Counted from the stretch's first letter, positions 1,059-31,137 are shown. The stretch is DNA of 64,000 nucleotides from Tagaea sp. (GCA_044224405.1 JBGAKN010000001.1:416973-480972); one strand, 5' to 3'. Notes: generated by a model not told the origin, from the sequence alone. Translations and numbers: made by a program.

Positions 1059-2516
1059 ATGGAACAGCTTCCCGTCGCCGTGATCGGCGCAGGCCCCGTG
1101 GGCCTCGCCGCCGCCGCCCATCTCCTCGCGCGCGGCTTCACGCCCGTCGTGCTGGAGGCCGGCCCTTCGGCCGGGCACGTCGTGGCGCAATGGGCGCATG
1201 TGCACATGTTCTCGCCCTGGTCGTTCAACATCGACGCGGTGTCGCGCCGGCTTCTCGACAAGGCCGGATGGACGGCGCCGAAGGCGACGGATGTGCCGAC
1301 CGGCGGCGAACTCGTCGAGCAATACGTGAGGCCGCTGGCGGCGACGCCAGAGCTTGCGCCTCACATCGTCTATGGCGCGAAGGTCGAGGCGGTCGCGCGC
1401 GCGACGCGCGACAAGCTGCGCGATGACCGCGACGGCGATCCGTTCGTGCTGCGTTATCGCAAGGACGGCAAGTCCGTCTCGTTGCGCGCGCGCGCCGTCA
1501 TCGACGCGTCGGGAACCTGGTCGTCGCCCAATCCGCTCGGCGCCAACGGCCTCGCGGTCGACGGCGAAGGGCAGGTCGCACGCGCCATCGGCTATGGCAT
1601 TCCCGACGTCGGCGGCATCGACCGGCCGCTCTATGCCGGCAAGACCACGCTGGTGGTCGGCGGCGGCCACTCGGCGATCAATGCACTTCTCGACCTCGTC
1701 GCGCTGCGTGCGTCCGATCCGGGCACGCGCGTTCTGTGGGGAATCCGGCGCGCGAACCCGACACGCGCCATCGGCGGCGGTGCGGCCGACGCGCTGGCCG
1801 AACGCGGCGCGCTCGGCACGCGGCTGGAGGCGGCGCTTGCGGCCGGCGATATCGAACTGGTCACTTCCTTCGCGATCGACGCGCTTGCGCCGGTCGCGGG
1901 CGGGATCGCGGTCGCCGGGCGCACGGGCGCGTTCCCGATAAATTTCGTGGTCGACCGGATCGTCGCCGCGACGGGCTTCCGGCCCGATCTCGCGATGCTG
2001 CGCGAGGTGCGCGTCGACCTCGATGCGGCACTCGAATGCACGCCGGCGCTGGCGCCGCTGATCGACCCGAACATCCATTCGTGCGGCACGGTGCGCCCGC
2101 ACGGCGCGATCCAGCTCGCGCACCCGGAAAAGGATTTCTACATCGCCGGCATGAAGAGCTACGGCCGCGCGCCGACCTTCCTGCTCGCCACCGGTTACGA
2201 GCAGGTGCGCTCCATCGCGGCCGCGCTCGCGGGCGACATGGAAGCCGCCGCACGCGTCGAACTCGACCTGCCGCAGACAGGCGTCTGCTCGGTCACGGTG
2301 CGCGAAGCGGCGGTCGCGGAAGCCGGCTGCTGTGGCGGCCCGCCGGCACCCGTCGAAGCGGCACCATGCTGCTTCAAGGAGGTTCAGGTGAAGAGACCGG
2401 AACCCGTCGCGCAAGCCGGCTGTTGCGGGGGGCCTGCGCCCGCCGAAACCGATGCCTGCTGCGTCAAAGATGCCGAAGCGAAGGCGGCCGGCAAGTCCGG
2501 TTGCGGCTGCAGCTAG
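1059..2516 (+). CDS. FAD/NAD(P)-binding flavoprotein oxidoreductase (ArsO/CzcO-like) with C-terminal tail rich in vicinal cysteines
   Basis: Two Rossmann motifs (VAVIGAGPVGLAAA.., TTLVVGGGHSAINALLD); C-terminus contains GCCGGPPAP..PCCFKE and GCCGGPAPAE..ACCVKD repeats then GCGCS; RBS AAAGGA 8 nt upstream of ATG 1059; immediately downstream of arsR. Confidence 0.8.
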   Translation: MEQLPVAVIGAGPVGLAAAAHLLARGFTPVVLEAGPSAGHVVAQWAHVHMFSPWSFNIDAVSRRLLDKAGWTAPKATDVPTGGELVEQYVRPLAATPELAPHIVYGAKVEAVARATRDKLRDDRDGDPFVLRYRKDGKSVSLRARAVIDASGTWSSPNPLGANGLAVDGEGQVARAIGYGIPDVGGIDRPLYAGKTTLVVGGGHSAINALLDLVALRASDPGTRVLWGIRRANPTRAIGGGAADALAERGALGTRLEAALAAGDIELVTSFAIDALAPVAGGIAVAGRTGAFPINFVVDRIVAATGFRPDLAMLREVRVDLDAALECTPALAPLIDPNIHSCGTVRPHGAIQLAHPEKDFYIAGMKSYGRAPTFLLATGYEQVRSIAAALAGDMEAAARVELDLPQTGVCSVTVREAAVAEAGCCGGPPAPVEAAPCCFKEVQVKRPEPVAQAGCCGGPAPAETDACCVKDAEAKAAGKSGCGCS

Positions 2517-3171
2517 CGCAGCAGGCGGCGGGCAAGGACGGCCGCGACGGCTGCGCCCGCGCATTGCGCGACGATGAATCCCGGCGCATCGGCCGGCCGG
2601 ATGCCGGCGAAGCTATCGGTCAGCGCGCGCGCCAGCGTCACGGCCGGATTGGCGAAGCTGGTTGACGCGGTGAACCAGTAGGCGCCTGCGATATATCCGG
2701 CGACGGCGGCGGGCACGTTCGGCGCGCTGCGCTTCGAAGCAAGCAGCACGATCAGCAGAAGCCCGAAGGTCGCCACCGCCTCGGCGAACCATTGGGGCAA
2801 TCCGGCGCGGATTTTCGTGCCGGCCTGGAACAGCGCCACATCGAACATGCCGTGCGCCGCGAGCACGCCAAGCACGGCGCCGGCGATCTGCGCCAAGAAA
2901 TAGGGCAGCACGTCGGTGCGCGGCAGGTCGCCGCGCGCGGCCAGCGCCAGCGTGACCAGCGGATTGAAATGCGCGCCCGAAACAGGGCCGAGTGCCGCGA
3001 TCAGCGCGTAGAGCACGCCCGCGGTCGCGATCGCGTTGGCGAGCAAAGCGAGCGCGACGTTCCCGCCGGAAAGCCGCTCGGCCATGATGCCCGAGCCGAC
3101 GATCGCCGCCAGCAGCAGGGCGCTTCCCGCGGCTTCGGCAAAGATGCGTGCGGTCCGGTCGGCGGTCACGC
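2513..3171 (-). CDS. aqpS: Aquaglyceroporin (MIP family) of ars operons, arsenite channel AqpS-like
   Basis: Two NPA motifs (HFNPLVT, FANPAVT) and six TM segments; GTG start overlaps arsC stop (GTGA); the 396-aa ORF in the track is run-through in the same frame. Confidence 0.8.
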
Positions 3172-3672
3172 GGGTTCGGTCTTCCGGCCCATCTCGTCGA
3201 CCTTGCGCTTGATCTCGAGCGTCGTGAGCGATGCCATCGGCAGGCTCGCGAAGATGCGGATGCGCCGTTCGATCATGGCGAACACGTCGGCCGTGAAGGC
3301 GGCCTTTTCCGCATCCGTGCCTTCGAACGACGAGGGATCGGGAAAGCCCCAGTGCGCCGTGATCGGCTGGCCCGGCCAGACCGGGCAGACCTCGCCGGCC
3401 GCGTCGTCGCAGACCGTGAAGACGAAATCCATCACGGGCGCGCCGGGTCGCGCGAATTCGCCCCAATCCTTCGAGCGGAAGCCGGACGTGTCGAAGCCGA
3501 GCCGGTCGAGCAGCGATTTGACGGACGGATTGATCCGGCCCGACGGCTGGCTGCCAGCACTGTAGGCGCGGAAGCGCCCTTCGCCGTGCCGGTTCAGCAG
3601 CGCCTCGGCCATCACCGAACGCGCGGAATTGTGGGTGCAGAGAAACAGGACATTCTTGCGGGTATCGGTCAT
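3166..3672 (-). CDS. arsC: Arsenate reductase, LMW-PTPase/thioredoxin-coupled type
   Basis: CTHNSARS P-loop motif, 168 aa, typical ArsC of LMW phosphatase family. Confidence 0.9.
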   Translation of the reverse strand: MTDTRKNVLFLCTHNSARSVMAEALLNRHGEGRFRAYSAGSQPSGRINPSVKSLLDRLGFDTSGFRSKDWGEFARPGAPVMDFVFTVCDDAAGEVCPVWPGQPITAHWGFPDPSSFEGTDAEKAAFTADVFAMIERRIRIFASLPMASLTTLEIKRKVDEMGRKTEPA

Positions 3673-3732
3673 GACGCGGCCTGCGCTCGTGGAACGGGAT
3701 CAAGAATATGCGGCCATCGCGTTACAGTCATG

Positions 3733-4488
3733 TTACGCCGACGTCAGGCCCAGCACGGCAGCCGCGATGGCGCGCGGGCGCTCGCCGATGCCGGTCGCGA
3801 CGGCGCCGGCCTGCGGGTCGATTTCCAGAAGCTTTGTCCCGATGACGACGTCGACGCCGTCATGGACGAGGCCGCGGATCGTGCCCGCAAGCGGTGCCGC
3901 GATCGGCGCGCCATCGACCGTCGCGACCGGTGCGCCGGCAGCGACCTTGTCGCCGATGCGTGCGTTCGTGCGCAGCGTGCCCGAAACCGGCGAATAGACA
4001 AGCCGCTCGCGCCCGGCGCCGCCCAGCGGCTTCGGCTCGCCCGCAAGCGCCAATGTCGCCCCGTCGCGTACGATGCGGCCGAGATCGGTCCAGCTCGTCT
4101 CGACGGCGACGTGGCAGTTCCTCCAGGCGTCGAAGCCCGGCCCGAGGCCGATGGCGAGCGGCGCCTGCCCGCGCAGGTCTTCGGGTTCCGCGCGCTTGCG
4201 CAGGCGCGCATCGACCAGCATGTCGGGCCGGAAGGCGCCCCGCACGGCATCGTAGGGCAGGGACGTGGCGACAAGGCCTTCGCCGATACGCGCAAGATCG
4301 TCGGCGCGCCTGCACTCCAGCCCTTCGAGTGCCGCGCGCCCGTCGAACATCGCGTCGGCGAAGCTCATGCCGCGCCGGTGCGTGGTCGGGTGCGCGACGT
4401 CGTGGATCAGCACGATGTGCTCCGCCATGCGCAGCGCGTGGGCGACGGCCGAGCCGACATCGCCGATCCCGCGCACGAGGACGCGCAT
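3733..4488 (-). CDS. YqeB/EF2563-family protein (family normally associated with selenium-dependent molybdenum hydroxylase systems)
   Basis: MRVLVRGIGDVGSAVAHAL N-terminus, MSFADAMFDG, AIGLGPGFDA and VETSWTDLGRIV motifs resemble TIGR03309-type proteins; start codon 2 nt downstream of livM stop. Confidence 0.55.
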   Translation of the reverse strand: MRVLVRGIGDVGSAVAHALRMAEHIVLIHDVAHPTTHRRGMSFADAMFDGRAALEGLECRRADDLARIGEGLVATSLPYDAVRGAFRPDMLVDARLRKRAEPEDLRGQAPLAIGLGPGFDAWRNCHVAVETSWTDLGRIVRDGATLALAGEPKPLGGAGRERLVYSPVSGTLRTNARIGDKVAAGAPVATVDGAPIAAPLAGTIRGLVHDGVDVVIGTKLLEIDPQAGAVATGIGERPRAIAAAVLGLTSA

Positions 4489-4490
4489 CG

Positions 4491-5567
4491 TCAGTGCGGG
4501 AACGGCCAGAGCCGCAGCTTTTCCTTGCCGATCTGCCAGAGCCGCGCGAGGCCGTGCGGCTCGGCGATCAGGAAGAACACGATGAGCGCGCCGAAGATCA
4601 TCAGCTCGAAATGCGCGATCGTGGAGGTGGAGAGCGGCACGCCCATGGCCGTGGGCACCACGTTGAGGAAGATCGGCAGCAGCACGATGAACGCCGCCCC
4701 CAGGAACGAGCCGAGGATCGAGCCGAGCCCGCCGATGATGATCATGAACAGGATCTGGAACGAGCGGTTGATGTCGAAGGCGAGGGCCTCGACCGAGCTC
4801 GTGTAGATGAAGGCCCACAGCGCTCCCGCAACGCCGCAGTAGAACGACGAGACGGCGAAGGCGAGCAGCTTGGTGTGCAGCGGGCGGATGCCGATGATCT
4901 CGGCCGCGATGTCCATGTCGCGGATCGCCATCCACGCGCGCCCGATTCGCCCGCGTACGAGATTCTTTGCGACGAGCGCCAGCAGCGCCACGAACGAGAG
5001 GCAGAAAATGTACTTGGCGTGCGAGGTCGCCTCGATGCCGGTGACGTAGAAGCCGAAGACCGCACGCGGCGGTGCCGAGATGACGCCGGAGGCCGAATAG
5101 TTCACGAACCACGGCACCTTCGTGAACAGCCAGATCAGGAAGAACTGCGCGGCGAGCGTGGCGACCGCGAGGTAGAAGCCCTTGATGCGCAGGCTGGGGA
5201 TGCCGAACGCGACGCCGACGGCGGCCGTGACGCCGCCCGCCAGCAGGAACACGAACACGATGTTGAGTTCGGGGAACGCGATCGCGAGCTTGTAGGCCGC
5301 GAAGGCGCCGCACGCCATGAAGCCGCCCGTACCCAGGCTGAGCTGCCCGCAATAGCCGGTCAGGATGTTGAGGCCGAGGGCGGCGACCGAAAAGACGAGG
5401 AACGGGATCAGGATCGTCGACAGGAAATAGTCGCTCGCCACCATCGGCGCGCCGACGAACGCGACGAGCAGCAGCAGCGCCAGCGCGATCCGGTCCTGCA
5501 GGATCGGGAAGATCGCCTGGTCTGCGGCATAGCTCGTCTTGTACTGGCCGGCCTCGCGGTAGATCAC
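4491..5567 (-). CDS. Branched-chain amino acid-type ABC transporter permease (LivM-like)
   Basis: 358 aa polytopic membrane protein with LivM-type sequence. Confidence 0.85.
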   Translation of the reverse strand: MIYREAGQYKTSYAADQAIFPILQDRIALALLLLVAFVGAPMVASDYFLSTILIPFLVFSVAALGLNILTGYCGQLSLGTGGFMACGAFAAYKLAIAFPELNIVFVFLLAGGVTAAVGVAFGIPSLRIKGFYLAVATLAAQFFLIWLFTKVPWFVNYSASGVISAPPRAVFGFYVTGIEATSHAKYIFCLSFVALLALVAKNLVRGRIGRAWMAIRDMDIAAEIIGIRPLHTKLLAFAVSSFYCGVAGALWAFIYTSSVEALAFDINRSFQILFMIIIGGLGSILGSFLGAAFIVLLPIFLNVVPTAMGVPLSTSTIAHFELMIFGALIVFFLIAEPHGLARLWQIGKEKLRLWPFPH

Positions 5568-5571
5568 GTCG

Positions 5572-6507
5572 TCACACCCTCTCGATGATGCGTTCGCCGA
5601 ACAGGCCCTGCGGGCGGAACATCAGGAAGAACAGCGCGAGGATATAGGCGAACCAATCCTCGATGCCGCCGCCGATCTTCGCGGCCCAGAATACCTCCGC
5701 GACCTTCTCGCCCACGCCGATGATGAGGCCGCCGATGATGGCGCCGGGGATCGACGTGAAGCCGCCGAGGATCAGCACGGGCAGCGCCTTCAGCGCGACC
5801 AGCGCCAGCGAGAACTGCACGCCGAGCTTCGAGCCCCACATGATGCCCGCGACCAGCGCCACGATGCCGGCGACCGACCAGACGATCACCCAGATCGTCT
5901 GCAGCGGGATGCCGACCGACTGCGCAGCCTGATGGTCGTCGGCCACCGCGCGCAGCGCCCGCCCGATGCGGGTCGACTGGAAGAAGAAGGCGAGCGTGGC
6001 GACGAGCGTGCCGGCCACGAGAGCCGCGACGATGTCGAACGTGTTGACCAGCACGCCGCCGATCTCGATCGGGTCCTTCGGGATGCCGACATCGAGGCGC
6101 TTCACGTCCTCGCCCCACAGCATCTGGAAGAAGCCGTCGATGAAGAAGGTCACGCCGATCGTCGCCATGAACAGGATGATCGCCGGCTGGTTGACGAGCG
6201 GGCGCAGCACGACGCGCTCGATCGCGAAGGCGAGCGCGATCATGGTGGCAAGCGCCAGCAGCAAGGCGAGCCACTGGGGCGCCCCCAGTTCGTTGAAGCC
6301 CACGAACGAGAGGGCCGCGCTCAGCACCATCGCCCCTTGCGCGAAATTGAACACGCCCGAGGCCTTGAAGATCAGCACGAAGCCCAGCGCCACGAGGCTG
6401 TACATGACGCCCGTCAGCAGGCCGCCGACCAGCACCTCGACGAAGAAGGTCGGGAATTCCCAGATCTCCTTGAGCGGGCCGAAGAGGAAGTCGAGGAGGA
6501 AATCCAT
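5572..6507 (-). CDS. Branched-chain amino acid-type ABC transporter permease (LivH-like)
   Basis: 311 aa, typical LivH sequence (..GGLIIGVGEKVAEVFW..). Confidence 0.85.
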   Translation of the reverse strand: MDFLLDFLFGPLKEIWEFPTFFVEVLVGGLLTGVMYSLVALGFVLIFKASGVFNFAQGAMVLSAALSFVGFNELGAPQWLALLLALATMIALAFAIERVVLRPLVNQPAIILFMATIGVTFFIDGFFQMLWGEDVKRLDVGIPKDPIEIGGVLVNTFDIVAALVAGTLVATLAFFFQSTRIGRALRAVADDHQAAQSVGIPLQTIWVIVWSVAGIVALVAGIMWGSKLGVQFSLALVALKALPVLILGGFTSIPGAIIGGLIIGVGEKVAEVFWAAKIGGGIEDWFAYILALFFLMFRPQGLFGERIIERV

Positions 6508-10251: not shown

Positions 10252-12816
<2,565 letters not shown>

Positions 12817-27601: not shown

Positions 27602-28651
27602 TCAGATCGCTTCCAGCTCGGTCCAGGCCTGGTCGGCGAGGCCGCGCAGGCGCTGGCTGTCGATGCGGCCGGCGAAGGCGTAGGCGTAGCCGCCGCGATG
27701 CCAGTGGACGACATTCACGCCCTGGCGCAGGTCGGCGCGCGGGCTCTGCTCGCGCCGTTCGGAGAACGCGATGACGAGGCCGACGACCTCGTTCGCGCCG
27801 TTCTTGTAGAGAAGCTGCGCCGCGGGCTTGCCGCCGACGACCAGCATGCGCCCGCCCTGCAGCTCGAAGCCCTGCGACGTGAGATCGGGCAGCGCCAGAT
27901 TGCGGTTGAGCTTGGCGCCGAACCACTTGCCCAGTTCCGGCATGTCCTCGGTCGTGAAGTCGACGAGCAGGCGGCCTTCGCTGGCCTGCGTCGCTTCCGC
28001 GACATTGTAGAAGCCCGCGACATTGTCGAGCCAACGGTCGGTCGAGGCGAGCTCGAGCCCGCCGATCTGCGGCTGGATGCGCCCGGTGAACACGCCGCCG
28101 GCCCCCAGCACGAGGAAGAGCGCCACCGACGCGGCGACCGCCCAGACGAGCGGGCGGCGGATGCTGCCGGCCCGGGGCTTCATCGGGACGACGTTGCCGG
28201 CCTTGGTCTCGCGCACCGCCGCGACGAGGCGTGCAGGCACCGGCTCGTCCACGACGGGGGCGAGTGCGGCGCGCGCCAGCATGGCGGTGCGCCGGAAAAT
28301 CTCGATGCGGTTGCGCACGCGGCGGTCGGCGAGGGCGCCCCGCGCCACGCGCGCGGCGGCAGCGCCTTCGAGCGCGCCGTCGGCATAGGCCATCAATGTC
28401 TCGTCGTCGAACGCGCGCGCGGGCGCCACGGGCGCCTTCATCACGGCATCGACCAGCCGCTGCGGCACGGGCTCGAGCAGCACCTCGTTCATCGCGGCAT
28501 GCGCCATCGCGGCCATGCGGCGGAACATCGTCACGCGCGCGGCAACCTCGGCATCGTTCGCGAGAGCGGCTTCGACCGCGCGCAATTCCGCCGGCTCGGC
28601 CGTGCCGTCGGCGTAGCGCATCAGGGTCTCGTCGTCGAAGCGCGGTGACAT
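27602..28651 (-). CDS. Membrane anti-sigma factor (cognate of the upstream ECF sigma) with tandemly duplicated N-terminal cytoplasmic domain
   Basis: FDDETLMRYADG.. and FDDETLMAYADG.. repeats, single TM helix (PLVWAVAASVALFLVLG), periplasmic C-domain; ATG 14 nt after sigma-factor stop. Confidence 0.75.
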   Translation of the reverse strand: MSPRFDDETLMRYADGTAEPAELRAVEAALANDAEVAARVTMFRRMAAMAHAAMNEVLLEPVPQRLVDAVMKAPVAPARAFDDETLMAYADGALEGAAAARVARGALADRRVRNRIEIFRRTAMLARAALAPVVDEPVPARLVAAVRETKAGNVVPMKPRAGSIRRPLVWAVAASVALFLVLGAGGVFTGRIQPQIGGLELASTDRWLDNVAGFYNVAEATQASEGRLLVDFTTEDMPELGKWFGAKLNRNLALPDLTSQGFELQGGRMLVVGGKPAAQLLYKNGANEVVGLVIAFSERREQSPRADLRQGVNVVHWHRGGYAYAFAGRIDSQRLRGLADQAWTELEAI

Positions 28652-28665
28652 TCCTTGCAGTCCCT

Positions 28666-29253
28666 CTATTCGGCGGGCGAGGCGAGCGAGGAGCCCGTTT
28701 CGCCCAGCATGCGTGCCAGTGCGGTCCGTGCCCGCGCGAGACGGCTCATCACCGTCCCGATCGGGATGTCCAAGGCGGCGGCAGCCTCCTTGTAGCTCTG
28801 CCCCTCGACGCACACGAGCGTCAGCACCGTGCGCTGCTCGTCGGGCAGCTTCGCCATCGCCGCGCGCACGGCCTCGTAGGTCATGTGCGCCTCGATGCCG
28901 CGCCCGCCGTCGAAGGCGAGCTCGTCTTCCACCATGTCCGCGTCGATCCGGCCTTCGCCGGTGCGGACCTTGTTGGCGCGCCGGTCGTCCAGATAGATCG
29001 TCTGGACGATGCGGAACATCCAGCTGTCGAGCCGCGTACCGGGCTGGTACTGGTCGATCCGGGTCAGCGCGCGTTCGCACGCGGCCTGCACCAGATCGTC
29101 GGCCTGGTCGGGGGCGCCTGCGAGTCCGCGTGCGAAACGCCGCAGGCGCGGCAGCAGGGCCACCATCTCTTCGCGGATCTGGCGGATGGTGTCGTCGTTC
29201 ACGACGCTCTCCGGGGCGATCCGGTCCGGCAACCAGCCGTCCGACAGGAGCAC
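28666..29253 (-). CDS. ECF-family RNA polymerase sigma factor
   Basis: Sigma-70 region 2 (DDLVQAACERAL) and region 4 (VLTLVCVEGQSYKEAAAALDIPIGTVMSRLARAR); GTG start at 29253 or in-frame GTG near 29202. Confidence 0.85.
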   Translation of the reverse strand: MLLSDGWLPDRIAPESVVNDDTIRQIREEMVALLPRLRRFARGLAGAPDQADDLVQAACERALTRIDQYQPGTRLDSWMFRIVQTIYLDDRRANKVRTGEGRIDADMVEDELAFDGGRGIEAHMTYEAVRAAMAKLPDEQRTVLTLVCVEGQSYKEAAAALDIPIGTVMSRLARARTALARMLGETGSSLASPAE

Positions 29254-29440
29254 AACGACGGCGTTTCGGGATTATTCGGCACGGTTACGGCTTCCTTGGG
29301 ACTGTTGCCATTGCGCCACAGCTTCGCGGCCGGGACGATCGCGCAAATAAACCCCAACAGCGTTGAAAAGTCGAGGAAAGCCGGGGTTTTAGCGCGGCCC
29401 GGCCAAAGGGCGGCCAAGGCGAACGTCTCCGGTGCTATTT

Positions 29441-29454
29441 ATGATCCGGATCAT
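29441..29454 (+). promoter_or_regulatory. Perfect 14-bp palindrome ATGATCCGGATCAT matching an FNR/Dnr/NnrR-type box (TTGAT-N4-ATCAA) upstream of the cytochrome c' gene
   Basis: Palindrome read directly; centre about 61 nt upstream of the cycP ATG; followed by direct repeats GGATCGGAAAC / GGATCGGAACC. Confidence 0.5.
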
Positions 29455-29508
29455 ATGGATCGGAAACGGACCGGGACAGGATCGGAACCTGAAACCGGAG
29501 GGCTCGTC

Positions 29509-29967
29509 ATGCGCAGACTTTTCTTCATTCTCCTTGCCGCCGTCGGCATCGCCGCGCTTTCGGCTGCCGTCGGTACCGCGCGCGCTGGCGAGGATCGCGA
29601 ACTCGTCAAGATGCCGGCGATGATGCAGGAGCACATGCTTGCCAGCATGCGCGATCACCTGATGACGCTCGGCGAGATTTTCGCCGACCTGACAGTCGAG
29701 AATTTCGATGCGGCCGCCAAGGCGGCCGAGACGCGGCTCGGGCTCAGCTCGTTCGCGCTGCACGATTCGGCGCACATGGCGGCGTTCATGCCCAAGCCGA
29801 TGCAGGATGCCGGAACCGAGCTGCACAAGGCCGCCAGCCGCTTCGCGATCGTCGCGCAGGAGGCCGATGTCGAACGCTCTTACGAGTCGATGAAGAAGCT
29901 GAACGGCGCACTCGCCGAAATGGTCTCGAGCTGCAATGCCTGCCATGTCGGCTACCGAATCCGGTAG
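29509..29967 (+). CDS. cycP: Cytochrome c' (class II c-type cytochrome), periplasmic
   Basis: Signal peptide MRRLFFILLAAVGIAALSAAVGTARA, four-helix length (152 aa), single C-terminal CNACH haem motif; RBS GGAGG 8 nt upstream. Confidence 0.8.
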   Translation: MRRLFFILLAAVGIAALSAAVGTARAGEDRELVKMPAMMQEHMLASMRDHLMTLGEIFADLTVENFDAAAKAAETRLGLSSFALHDSAHMAAFMPKPMQDAGTELHKAASRFAIVAQEADVERSYESMKKLNGALAEMVSSCNACHVGYRIR

Positions 29968-30610
29968 CTCCCGCGCGAAGGGAGCCACCCCGGCCGCCGC
30001 CCCCTGGATCGCGGCGGCTGGGGTGGCCGCATCGCGTCGCAGCCTCGATGCGGGCCAGCCCTTGTTTCGGCAGGGCGACGCGACATTCGGGATCTTCGCC
30101 GTCGAGAGCGGGCGCCTACGCCTGCTCCGGCACGCCCGCGACGGCAGCGATTGCGTCCTGCATGTCGCCGCGCGCGGCGACACGTTCGCCGAAGCGGCTC
30201 TGTTCTCGCCGCACTATCATTGCGACGCCATCGCAGACATTCCCTCGCGCGTCACGGTCTTTCCCAAGGACGCGCTTCTCGCCGCGTTCGCGGCGGATAC
30301 GGATCTTGCCGCGGCCTTCATGGCGCACCTGGCGCGCCAGGTGCAGGCGCTGCGCGCGCGCGTGGAGATGCGCAACATCCGGTCGGCGGACGAGCGCGTG
30401 ATGCGATACCTCGCCCTTCGGGCAATTGACGGCGCGGCGACGGTGACGTTCGACCGGCCGTTGCGCGACGTGGCCGGCGAAATCGGTCTCGCGCATGAAT
30501 CGTTCTACCGCGCGCTGAAGATACTGGAGACGCGCGGCGCGATCGGGCGGAACGGGCGGAAAATCCGGCTGCTTGGCAGCCCCGACACACGACGGCGCAC
30601 CAGAACCTAG
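29936..30610 (+). CDS. Crp/Fnr-family transcriptional regulator (Dnr/NnrR-like), overlapping the end of cycP
   Basis: cNMP-binding-like beta-roll then C-terminal HTH (..VAGEIGLAHESFYRALKILE..); no N-terminal Cys cluster. Confidence 0.8.
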   Translation: MPAMSATESGSSRAKGATPAAAPWIAAAGVAASRRSLDAGQPLFRQGDATFGIFAVESGRLRLLRHARDGSDCVLHVAARGDTFAEAALFSPHYHCDAIADIPSRVTVFPKDALLAAFAADTDLAAAFMAHLARQVQALRARVEMRNIRSADERVMRYLALRAIDGAATVTFDRPLRDVAGEIGLAHESFYRALKILETRGAIGRNGRKIRLLGSPDTRRRTRT

Positions 30611-31133
30611 TCGCCTGGCGGCGGGGTTGCCGGGGCCGGCAGGAACGCCTCGGGGATTTCCGGCGGAGATTCGGGTTCGCTGTCGCCGCGCCAGTAGACG
30701 ACGAAGAAGCGCCCGTCGTCTTCGCGCAGGTAGACCTGCCAGTCGTCCCAGCTTTCACCTGCGCAGCTCCCTTCCGCGGGGCAGCGGCGGGCCTTGGCTT
30801 CGGCCAGCAGGAAGCCCGCGCGGAACCAGGTGAGGTGGCGCAGGTCCTCGGTGACGTCCTCGGGCTTGATCGTGCTGAGGCGATCGACGGCGAATTCCAG
30901 CACGTGCGGCTCGTCGACGAGCTTGGGAATTTCGGTGAGGCCGACGCGCGCGCACGATTCTTCGGTAAGGCGCGCGGCGCACGTGAAGAAGAGCGCGATG
31001 GCGCAGCCCGCGTCGCGCGCCTGTCCGCCGCAGGCAGGCTCGCCGTCGAGTGCTGCACGCCCCGGCTTGTCGGCGGTCTGCGCGTGCGCCGCACCCGCCC
31101 CTAGCAGCAGGAGCGCGAGGAGGAGTGTGCGGA

Positions 31134-31137
<4 letters not shown>
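30607..31137 (-). CDS. Secreted Cys-containing hypothetical protein (176 aa)
   Basis: Signal peptide [20 protein letters not shown]; start ATG overlaps stop of upstream DUF853 gene (ATGA). Confidence 0.6.

Follow-up and report, generated by a model that had tools for sequence, protein, structure and literature searches.

A Crp/Fnr-type regulator, a palindromic operator and a cytochrome-like protein form a probable class II activation module in Tagaea sp.

Crp/Fnr regulators are sensors of cyclic AMP (cAMP), oxygen, nitric oxide (NO), carbon monoxide and other signals. CRP, FNR, FixK and DNR share an activation arrangement, the class II geometry, in which the DNA-binding box lies at −41.5. Comparative work has tied the outer position of the box to residues of the recognition helix and gives the boxes of DNR and NnrR (PMC1274295). 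Here, we describe a locus of this kind in a stretch of 64,000 nucleotides (nt) of Tagaea sp. DNA (GCA_044224405.1 JBGAKN010000001.1:416973-480972; one strand, 5′ to 3′; hereafter the window), whose positions 28,666 to 30,610 include a perfect palindrome, a gene for a cytochrome-like haem protein and an overlapping gene for a Crp/Fnr-family regulator. A first-pass annotation, made from the sequence alone, had read these features as an NO-detoxification regulon to which a divergent pair of extracytoplasmic function (ECF) sigma and anti-sigma genes may add envelope-stress input. All of the sequence features that it named are present in the window, and the regulator–cytochrome pair is, as it had proposed, a self-contained unit, set among housekeeping genes. 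Our analysis makes it likely, though, that the pair is a two-gene regulator–target module operating by class II activation in envelope or periplasmic stress, and not a dedicated NO regulon. The architecture of this putative module is well supported; its effector and biochemical role are uncertain predictions. Its elements, with positions counted from the first letter of the window, are as follows.

29440-29455, no strand: operator, a perfect palindrome of 16 base pairs (bp), TATGATCCGGATCATA, self-complementary and read directly, with its centre between 29447 and 29448
29441-29454, no strand: operator core ATGAT-N4-ATCAT, ATGATCCGGATCAT, the 14 bp inside the 16-mer
29477-29482, plus strand: predicted −10 hexamer CAGGAT, offset 29.5 bp from the box centre
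29497-29501, plus strand: Shine-Dalgarno sequence GGAGG, 7 nt 5′ of the haem-protein ATG, by sequence reading
29509-29967, plus strand: haem-protein (cytochrome) gene, 152 amino acids (aa)
29932-29946, plus strand: codons of the haem-attachment motif C-N-A-C-H, with C142, C145 and H146 invariant in family alignment A1
29936-30610, plus strand: regulator gene, 224 aa, with cNMP_binding and HTH_Crp_2 domains
30215-30226, plus strand: codons of the pocket motif Y94-H95-C96-D97, invariant in alignment A2
30497-30511, plus strand: codons of the recognition-helix motif E188-S-F-Y191-R192, located by hhalign to FNR and CRP

The palindrome, described earlier as a perfect 14-bp element about 60 nt upstream of the haem-protein gene, is indeed perfect but is 16 bp long in full; its centre lies 61.5 nt, and its end 53 nt, before the ATG at 29509. 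Its assignment to an FNR/Dnr/NnrR half-site pattern holds for the FNR-like 5-N4-5 spacing but not for the half-site itself, which is ATGAT and not TTGAT or TTGCG. The window contains one exact copy of TATGATCCGGATCATA, where base composition predicts 0.003 exact occurrences of ATGAT-N4-ATCAT. Two copies with one mismatch (at 12683 and 58651) were considered as further operators and rejected, since both lie inside long open reading frames (ORFs). An RNA element in the intergenic region was likewise ruled out, as Rfam gave no match there at E<=1. Between the operator and the start codon, positions 29457-29492 hold a direct repeat, GGATCGGAAACGGA / GGATCGGAACCTGA, composed of small repeats (GGATCGGAA) with a 22-nt spacing; this repeat re-uses the GGATC of the right arm of the box, and its conservation was not seen in other loci.

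A scan of relatives, taking one genome per species, yielded 552 loci, and 80 of these were fetched and form the basis of all locus counts given here. Exact copies of ATGAT-N4-ATCAT occur 44 times in the 850 kb of related loci, compared to 0.18 expected, which excludes chance as their origin. Within 420 nt upstream of a homologous haem-protein gene, 33 of the 80 loci carry the exact box, with 26 different N4 spacers and with the GC content of these loci ranging from 51 to 69%; a copy with one mismatch is found in 11 additional loci. When the sequences were aligned on the box, a T at −7.5 and an A at +7.5, which flank the core, were also conserved, supporting a longer palindrome of 16-18 bp. The motif observed across the 33 loci is tATGATnnnnATCATa. 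The comparative data thus mark the palindrome as a genuine Crp/Fnr-type operator.

The distribution of the box further points to the protein that binds it. A regulator homologue adjoins the haem-protein gene, in one orientation or another, in 32 of the 80 loci; the box is present in 31 of these 32, but in only 13 of the other 48 (Fisher p = 9e-11). Box presence therefore tracks regulator adjacency, the signature of a cognate regulator–operator pair, and the adjacent regulator is the obvious candidate for binding the box. Many of the related loci are isolated regulator–cytochrome pairs, and the gene arrangement of the window recurs in three metagenome contigs that encode the identical cytochrome-like protein.

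To define the promoter, we aligned 34 sequences (33 related loci and the window), anchored on the box and oriented towards the haem-protein gene. Between +29.5 and +34.5 from the box centre, these promoters share the conserved pattern [C/T]A[A/G]nnT, with A at +30.5 in 27 of the 34 promoters (p = 4e-11) and T at +34.5 in 21 (p = 6e-6). With this conserved hexamer as the presumed −10 element (−12 to −7), the box would be placed at −41.5, the class II position, and transcription is predicted to start near 29489 with a leader of 20 nt. A consensus scan found no stand-alone sigma-70 promoter and no −35 element. A palindrome near −41.5, a −10 element and the absence of a −35 element, together with the predicted start site, would make this a class II Crp/Fnr-dependent promoter. 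Extra boxes in other loci show the same box-to-hexamer offset, directed towards the gene that they precede.

The product of the first gene has a predicted Sec-type signal peptide of 26 aa (29509-29586, plus strand; MRRLFFILLAAVGIAALSAAVGTARA followed by GEDR), for which the AxA rule gives cleavage between ARA and GE; the N-terminal hydrophobic segment is kept across the family. As the first-pass annotation had noted, the protein carries a single C-terminal CxxCH: it has exactly two cysteines, both within CNACH at residues 142-146. Homology searches with the 152-aa protein recovered a coherent family of proteins of 140-200 aa, mostly unannotated and in some cases labelled 'cytochrome c556' by JGI, which comprises 688 clusters in an exhaustive profile search (E<=1e-10) and has relatives in at least 552 species-level genomes. 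The AlphaFold2 model is a helical bundle (predicted local distance difference test score, pLDDT, of 91.7) with three long helices and a second helix that is short and leads into a conserved loop.

The four-helix bundle and the single C-terminal CxxCH are as expected of a cytochrome c′, and the first-pass annotation had called the protein one, but the identification did not hold. The window protein scores 18.9 bits against Pfam PF01322 (Cytochrom_C_2), below the gathering cut-off of 26.5, and matches over its last 50 residues only, while 23 of 27 relatives match the same model at E<=0.01 (best 3.9e-6). A profile search of the PDB with the haem-protein family gave a best E of 0.016, limited to the haem helix, and hhalign against solved cytochromes c′ aligned only the helix with CxxCH. 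Furthermore, the family alignment has 23 invariant positions, and those outside the haem motif (H42, M47-R48-D49-H50, E74, R76, H85, M98, H106 and S110) include His, Met, Arg and Asp residues foreign to cytochrome c′. The invariant H42 and M47-R-D-H50 fall on helix A and suggest a polar or ligating distal side. Aligning the protein with Alcaligenes cytochrome c′ or E. coli b562 was rejected as a way to assign the distal haem ligand, since hhalign covers the C-terminal helix only and leaves helix A unaligned with the Alcaligenes protein. We therefore regard the haem protein as a probable distant class II (cytochrome c′/c556-like) offshoot that constitutes a family of its own.

Members of this family vary at the N terminus and in their surroundings. 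Many of them carry His/Met-rich extensions after the signal peptide, such as SPMDHMMMHDHSQAMQHMH (alignment A1; loci L048, L058, L062, L087 and L088), and the window protein has no such tail. The gene of the L088 member is divergent from a ZnuABC-type metal importer. A second, divergent cytochrome-like paralogue with 31% identity is encoded at 1508-1879 of L003, a Magnetospirillum metagenome-assembled genome, 1.7 kb upstream of the regulator–cytochrome pair.

The second gene encodes a protein with Pfam matches to cNMP_binding (61.8 bits) and HTH_Crp_2. Its reported overlap with the last 30 nt of the cytochrome gene is real, although the size is 32 nt if translation starts at the ATG at 29936 and 23 nt if it starts at the ATG at 29945. 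No other start codon precedes the conserved PWIA segment, and because this segment is kept in close homologues and lies ahead of any later start codon, the overlap can be taken as genuine. The CNACH codons (TGC AAT GCC TGC CAT GTC) create both regulator ATGs in another frame; the start codons thus lie within the codons of the invariant haem motif, and the haem motif constrains the regulator start.

The regulator lacks an N-terminal FNR-type cluster, in agreement with the first-pass annotation: its only cysteines are Cys73, which is not conserved, and Cys96. Among solved structures, the regulator family profile best matches P. aeruginosa DNR (3dkw; 90 bits, full length), followed by a Ruegeria structural-genomics protein and CRPs, with much weaker matches to FNR, FixK2 and CooA. 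Scores against the NCBIfam equivalogs FixK, FtrB, CRP and Fnr are far below the cut-offs, the best being about 40 bits for FixK and FtrB. Identity to DNR is low, and a few homologues bear the JGI KO label 'dissimilatory nitrate respiration regulator'. The earlier description of the regulator as Dnr/NnrR-like is thus correct to the extent that DNR is its closest solved relative; the box, the recognition helix and the observed regulon differ.

Two segments set the regulator apart. The YHCD motif of the effector pocket is exact in 30 of the 32 cytochrome-linked homologues, down to 32% identity, and reads YRCD or HHCD in the others. In hhalign comparisons with E. coli CRP, C96 corresponds to Arg82, D97 to Ser83 and E86 to Glu72; the Arg82/Ser83 clamp that holds the cAMP phosphate is therefore absent, with Cys96 and Asp97 in its place, while Glu72 is retained as Glu86. 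These substitutions argue against cyclic-nucleotide binding in the manner of CRP and for a pocket rebuilt around His, Cys and Asp. The E-x-x-Y-R recognition helix is found in all 32 cytochrome-linked homologues. Here, E188, Y191 and R192 correspond to E209, S212 and R213 of E. coli FNR, and H187, E188 and R192 to R180, E181 and R185 of CRP (full-length alignments with probabilities of 97.5% for FNR and 97.9% for CRP). Tyr191 in place of FNR Ser212 would fit half-sites whose outer base is A. Taken together, these features appear to define a previously undescribed, DNR-related subfamily that is probably not a cAMP, iron–sulfur (Fe-S) or canonical DNR/NnrR sensor. Neither the ATGAT-N4-ATCAT box nor the regulator subfamily nor the cytochrome family turned up in searches of the open literature, which also gave nothing on cytochrome c556 with Crp, on Crp-type sensors of sulfane sulfur or on H187 as the haem ligand of DNR.

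The genes linked to the module in related loci offer the main indication of its physiology. In four of the six closest loci (L001, L003, L004 and L006/L084), which include Methylocapsa aurea, SoxY-SoxZ immediately follow the cytochrome gene, with the same box ahead of them. Three of these four, L003 being the exception, also encode a periplasmic DsrE protein exported by twin-arginine translocation, and L001, L003 and L004 have a ChrA-type transporter, giving the order cyt-(ChrA)-DsrE-SoxY-SoxZ. TauE-family genes are found near the module in L001 and in several other loci. The DsrE-SoxY-SoxZ trio occurs without SoxAX/SoxB at 6426-7752 of L001, 7049-8243 of L004 and 7575-8920 of L084, and its position directly behind the cytochrome-like gene suggests that the haem protein may partner the sulfur carriers DsrE, SoxY and SoxZ. 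DsrE-like periplasmic proteins are known members of sox operons (PMC9371685).

Extra exact boxes followed by a class II −10-like hexamer were observed at L012 11803, L048 7132, L058 10290 and L062 9358. The genes behind them encode Met-rich periplasmic proteins of about 216 aa with HGMGPxMMG repeats and a C-terminal GPMMMMRGMMH, and boxes with the same −10 offset also lie ahead of genes for a small MerT-like membrane protein (L058) and a MacB-like ABC exporter (L004). At L090 3270-3887 (minus strand) and L091 4682-5380, Y-H-C-D regulators have no cytochrome gene beside them. Both have one-mismatch boxes close by, along with a Met/His-rich periplasmic protein of another kind, whose two copies are 47% identical and share LPGQxAFGxIQE...HHQxHHLA; this family has 5,690 homologues at E<=1e-5, and all of those listed are 'hypothetical' or unnamed. 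The co-regulated proteins had no match in Pfam, NCBIfam or PDB, and their 120 listed homologues are all 'hypothetical' or unnamed. The two-component systems encoded in loci without a box are EnvZ/CpxA-like; an assignment as heavy-metal systems was discarded, since kinase and response regulator resemble EnvZ/CpxA-OmpR and score below the heavy-metal cut-offs. No nir, nor, nos or nnrS gene was found among the recurrent neighbour clusters or box-associated genes of the 80 loci, a check confined to these loci and not exhaustive.

From these observations, we propose the following mechanism. A dimer of the regulator bound to the box at −41.5 would recruit RNA polymerase to produce a bicistronic transcript from about 29489, with the cytochrome gene first and the regulator gene second. 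Co-transcription is expected because the genes overlap by 32 nt and no other box or promoter lies inside the cytochrome gene. Given that the regulator gene is second on the activated transcript, the regulator would positively control its own expression in this genome, and its translation is probably coupled to that of the cytochrome because it has no Shine-Dalgarno sequence and starts within the last cytochrome codons. The first product would be a Sec-exported, four-helix-bundle, monohaem c-type cytochrome that acts as a periplasmic redox or ligand-binding protein. The Y-H-C-D pocket is the most likely effector-sensing site, where His95, Cys96 and Asp97 could hold a cofactor or metal or where the single conserved thiol could be modified. 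The trigger may be chemical stress in the periplasm or envelope caused by thiol- or metal-reactive species, such as reactive sulfur, soft metals or oxidants. We favor this envelope-stress view because the products predicted to be co-regulated are exporters and periplasmic carriers rich in Cys, Met and His.

Several observations weigh against this interpretation. The −41.5 placement relies on a degenerate −10 pattern, to which the window hexamer CAGGAT is a weak match, and haem attachment and coordination are predicted from the CxxCH motif. In 21 of the 32 loci with an adjacent regulator, its gene is divergent and starts about 20-45 nt from the box, which probably represses it there, and none of the 32 has the order of the window, cytochrome gene then regulator gene; positive autoregulation would thus be specific to the lineage of the window. 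The co-regulated families are all uncharacterized, and the theme of sulfur, metals or oxidants comes from other genomes; SoxYZ, DsrE and Met-rich protein genes were not found in the window. Finally, NO is a possible signal because DNR, the nearest characterized relative of the regulator, senses it (PMC12750200).

The surroundings of the module in the window consist of housekeeping genes (HtpG, a Suv3-like helicase, CarD, an RpoH-like sigma factor, a HerA-like ATPase, GcrA and CorA), and no nir, nor, nos or nnrS gene was recognized within about 10 kb of the module, although this check was not exhaustive. The ECF pair occupies the following positions.

28666-29253, minus strand: ECF sigma factor gene, 195 aa, with Sigma70_r2 and r4_2 domains
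27602-28651, minus strand: anti-sigma factor gene, 349 aa, with a weak zf-HC2 match and one transmembrane segment

Both are genuine genes, as their domains (Sigma70_r2/r4_2 and zf-HC2) indicate, and a 255-bp intergenic region separates the divergent ECF sigma and haem-protein genes. The suggestion that they feed envelope stress into the module found no support: the sigma factor of the window is linked to it in 0 of 80 loci. As tblastn and phmmer detected no linked homologue in the 80 loci, we rejected the pair as a part of the module and conclude that it is a chance neighbor. The only ECF sigma factor that a sensitive search of these loci found beside a family member is an unrelated one in L077 (Sedimenticolaceae). 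At 2274-5670 of that locus, the cytochrome-like gene is divergent from a cluster of genes for the ECF sigma factor, a zf-HC2 anti-sigma factor and a small secreted protein with KCGN repeats, plus two others and a DoxX-like gene; this cluster may resemble the DUF2282-DUF692-DUF2063-DoxX stress cluster.

Two other observations concern neighboring proteins of the window. The anti-sigma factor has its N-terminal anti-sigma domain duplicated in tandem (residues 6-70 and 82-146); both repeats show FDDETLM-YADG at the start and EPVP-RLV-AV at the end, their local alignment scores 134 compared to 33 +/- 6 for shuffled sequences, and the single transmembrane segment follows at residues 168-190. On the other side of the module, a gene for a secreted, Cys-rich protein of 176 aa (30607-31137, minus strand) converges on the regulator gene, the stop codons of the two genes sharing 4 nt. 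This protein had no match in Pfam or NCBIfam and no homologue in the 80 related loci.

How do other explanations fare against the same data? It is extremely improbable that the palindrome arose by chance, is merely structural or belongs to the control region of the divergent ECF sigma factor. It does lie in the 255-bp region shared by the ECF sigma and cytochrome genes, but only 0.003 such sites are expected per window, the box is kept upstream of homologues in genomes without an ECF neighbor, transcription from a promoter at the GGAAC-N16-CGTC string near the haem-protein ATG would begin inside the ORF, and Rfam gave no match; this explanation appears effectively refuted by the comparative data. 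Repression instead of activation at the site is very improbable as well. The 21 divergent arrangements, with the box about 20-45 nt from the regulator start, would suit autorepression, and the −10 hexamer of the window is weak. What speaks for activation is that a −10-like element keeps the exact class II offset towards the cytochrome gene and, at the extra boxes, towards their targets, and that there is no −35 element or stand-alone promoter. From −41.5, moreover, Crp/Fnr proteins are mostly activators. FixK-type proteins have no cofactors and use the same promoter geometry, and the best, albeit weak, NCBIfam matches of the regulator are FixK and FtrB (about 40 bits), while some members of the target family are labelled 'cytochrome c556' by JGI. 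A FixK-like regulator without effector, or tuned to oxygen or redox state through its abundance or Cys oxidation, with the cytochrome as an ordinary respiratory electron carrier made under particular oxygen regimes, is nevertheless decidedly improbable: the scores are far under the equivalog cut-offs, a pocket with an invariant Y-H-C-D motif points to a specific ligand, neither fixNOQP nor other respiratory genes were seen next to the module, and the rest of the regulon consists of exporters and periplasmic proteins of a stress type.

The interpretation that the first-pass annotation had favored, a Dnr/NnrR-type NO sensor activating an NO-buffering cytochrome c′ in a self-contained NO-detoxification regulon, is quite unlikely. 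It draws on the regulator profile matching DNR best among solved structures (90 bits), on NO sensing via haem in the DNR-HcpR group (PMC12750200), on a target with a class II cytochrome fold and a C-terminal CxxCH-YR, on the weak PF01322 match in 23 of 27 relatives, and on an FNR/DNR-type 5-N4-5 box at −41.5. However, the DNR box CTTGATnnnnATCAAG and the NnrR box ctTTGcgnnnncgCAAag (PMC1274295) differ from the box here, which has A at the specificity base, and Tyr replaces Ser in the helix; the cytochrome falls below the Pfam cut-off and has a polar, His/Met-containing segment (H42...M47-R-D-H50) at the putative place of the hydrophobic distal pocket of cytochrome c′. Neither the recurrent neighbors in the 80 loci nor about 10 kb of the window contain a recognized nir, nor, nos or nnrS gene; the operon partners are instead DsrE-SoxYZ, Met/His-rich proteins and exporters, and the NO-detoxification regulon is therefore unsupported. 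A reactive-sulfur regulon, in which Cys96 is persulfidated or senses sulfide, polysulfide or sulfite and the cytochrome serves as electron acceptor or catalyst with SoxYZ and DsrE, is unlikely, though less so. SoxY-SoxZ stand behind the cytochrome gene and box in four of the six closest loci, with DsrE in three; TauE-family genes occur in several other loci; the regulator has an invariant Cys beside His and Asp; and DsrE-like periplasmic proteins are known in sox operons (PMC9371685). Against this, SoxYZ are present in only four of the 80 loci (DsrE in three) and not in the window, neither SoxAX nor SoxB was observed next to them, the module is mostly an isolated pair of genes, and no Crp-family sensor of sulfane sulfur was found in the searched literature. 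An envelope- or periplasm-linked class II module, with a broader chemical trigger, is the interpretation that we retain.

A bolder version of this interpretation is also conceivable, and we offer it tentatively as somewhat doubtful: Y-H-C-D Crp/Fnr proteins may be a new class of sensor that runs an unrecognized envelope-protection regulon, with the cytochrome as a catalytic or ligand-binding protein and not an electron shuttle or NO buffer. The cyclic-nucleotide pocket, rebuilt as a His-Cys-Asp site, might then detect a thiol- or metal-reactive signal derived from the periplasm, for example sulfane sulfur, a soft metal (Cu, Ag, Cd or Zn) or a chlorine or oxygen oxidant. If this is true, the regulon would be found mainly in Alphaproteobacteria and would consist only of uncharacterized families, namely the 'MRDHL' monohaem cytochrome, Met/His-rich proteins, stand-alone DsrE-SoxYZ and MacB-type exporters.

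Our analysis defines, from sequence alone, a Crp/Fnr subfamily with its own DNA code (A for T/G at the specificity base and Tyr for Ser in the helix), a rebuilt pocket, an operator and targets. Its primary target family has neither a Pfam model of its own nor a known function, and the other predicted targets are equally uncharacterized, such that a signal for the regulator could give roles to several large families of 'hypothetical proteins' at once. With regard to annotation, our findings urge caution: such genes should not be named 'cytochrome c′' or 'Dnr/NnrR', nor should NO metabolism be deduced from them. The module works like a class II activator of the DNR/FNR/FixK type with a single dedicated target. 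It is thus not a mechanistic surprise, and its value lies in being a cleanly defined orphan regulon whose signal is now testable.

Compared to known systems, the haem protein resembles cytochrome c′/c556 in being periplasmic, with a mature length of about 125 aa, and in forming a four-helix bundle with YR after its single C-terminal CxxCH. It differs in its 23 invariant positions; outside the haem motif, these include four His and two Met residues not found in cytochrome c′. With regard to the effector pocket, the ligands in CooA are Cys and His (Cys75/His77), whereas the H-C-D triad of the regulator lies at CRP Glu81, Arg82 and Ser83 and not at the CooA ligand positions; similarity to CooA is weak (32 bits). 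What the regulator may share with CooA and HcpR, which sense gases through haem, is a nucleotide-pocket region of the Crp family repurposed for a non-nucleotide effector (PMC12750200). With P. aeruginosa DNR (3dkw), the regulator shares the two-domain architecture, the lack of an Fe-S cluster and a 5-N4-5 box at the class II position. DNR, however, has N-Y-V-A where the regulator subfamily has Y-H-C-D, and its box CTTGAT-N4-ATCAAG and helix E-x-x-S-R contrast with tATGAT-N4-ATCATa and E-x-x-Y-R here, as does the NnrR box TTGCG-N4-CGCAA with ATGAT-N4-ATCAT (PMC1274295 for the boxes). The DNR/NnrR motifs CTTGATnnnnATCAAG / ctTTGcgnnnncgCAAag and the nir/nor/nos/nnrS regulon are not matched by the module across the 80 loci. 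Class II promoters of FNR and FixK have in common with the module the half-site spacing, the TGAT/ATCA core, the 29.5 bp from box centre to hexamer and the absence of a −35 element; they differ in the outer half-site base, which is T there and A here, and the regulator is without the FNR cysteines. FNR thus pairs an E-x-x-S-R helix with a TTGAT-N4-ATCAA box, whereas the regulator of Tagaea sp. pairs E-S-F-Y-R with ATGAT-N4-ATCAT.

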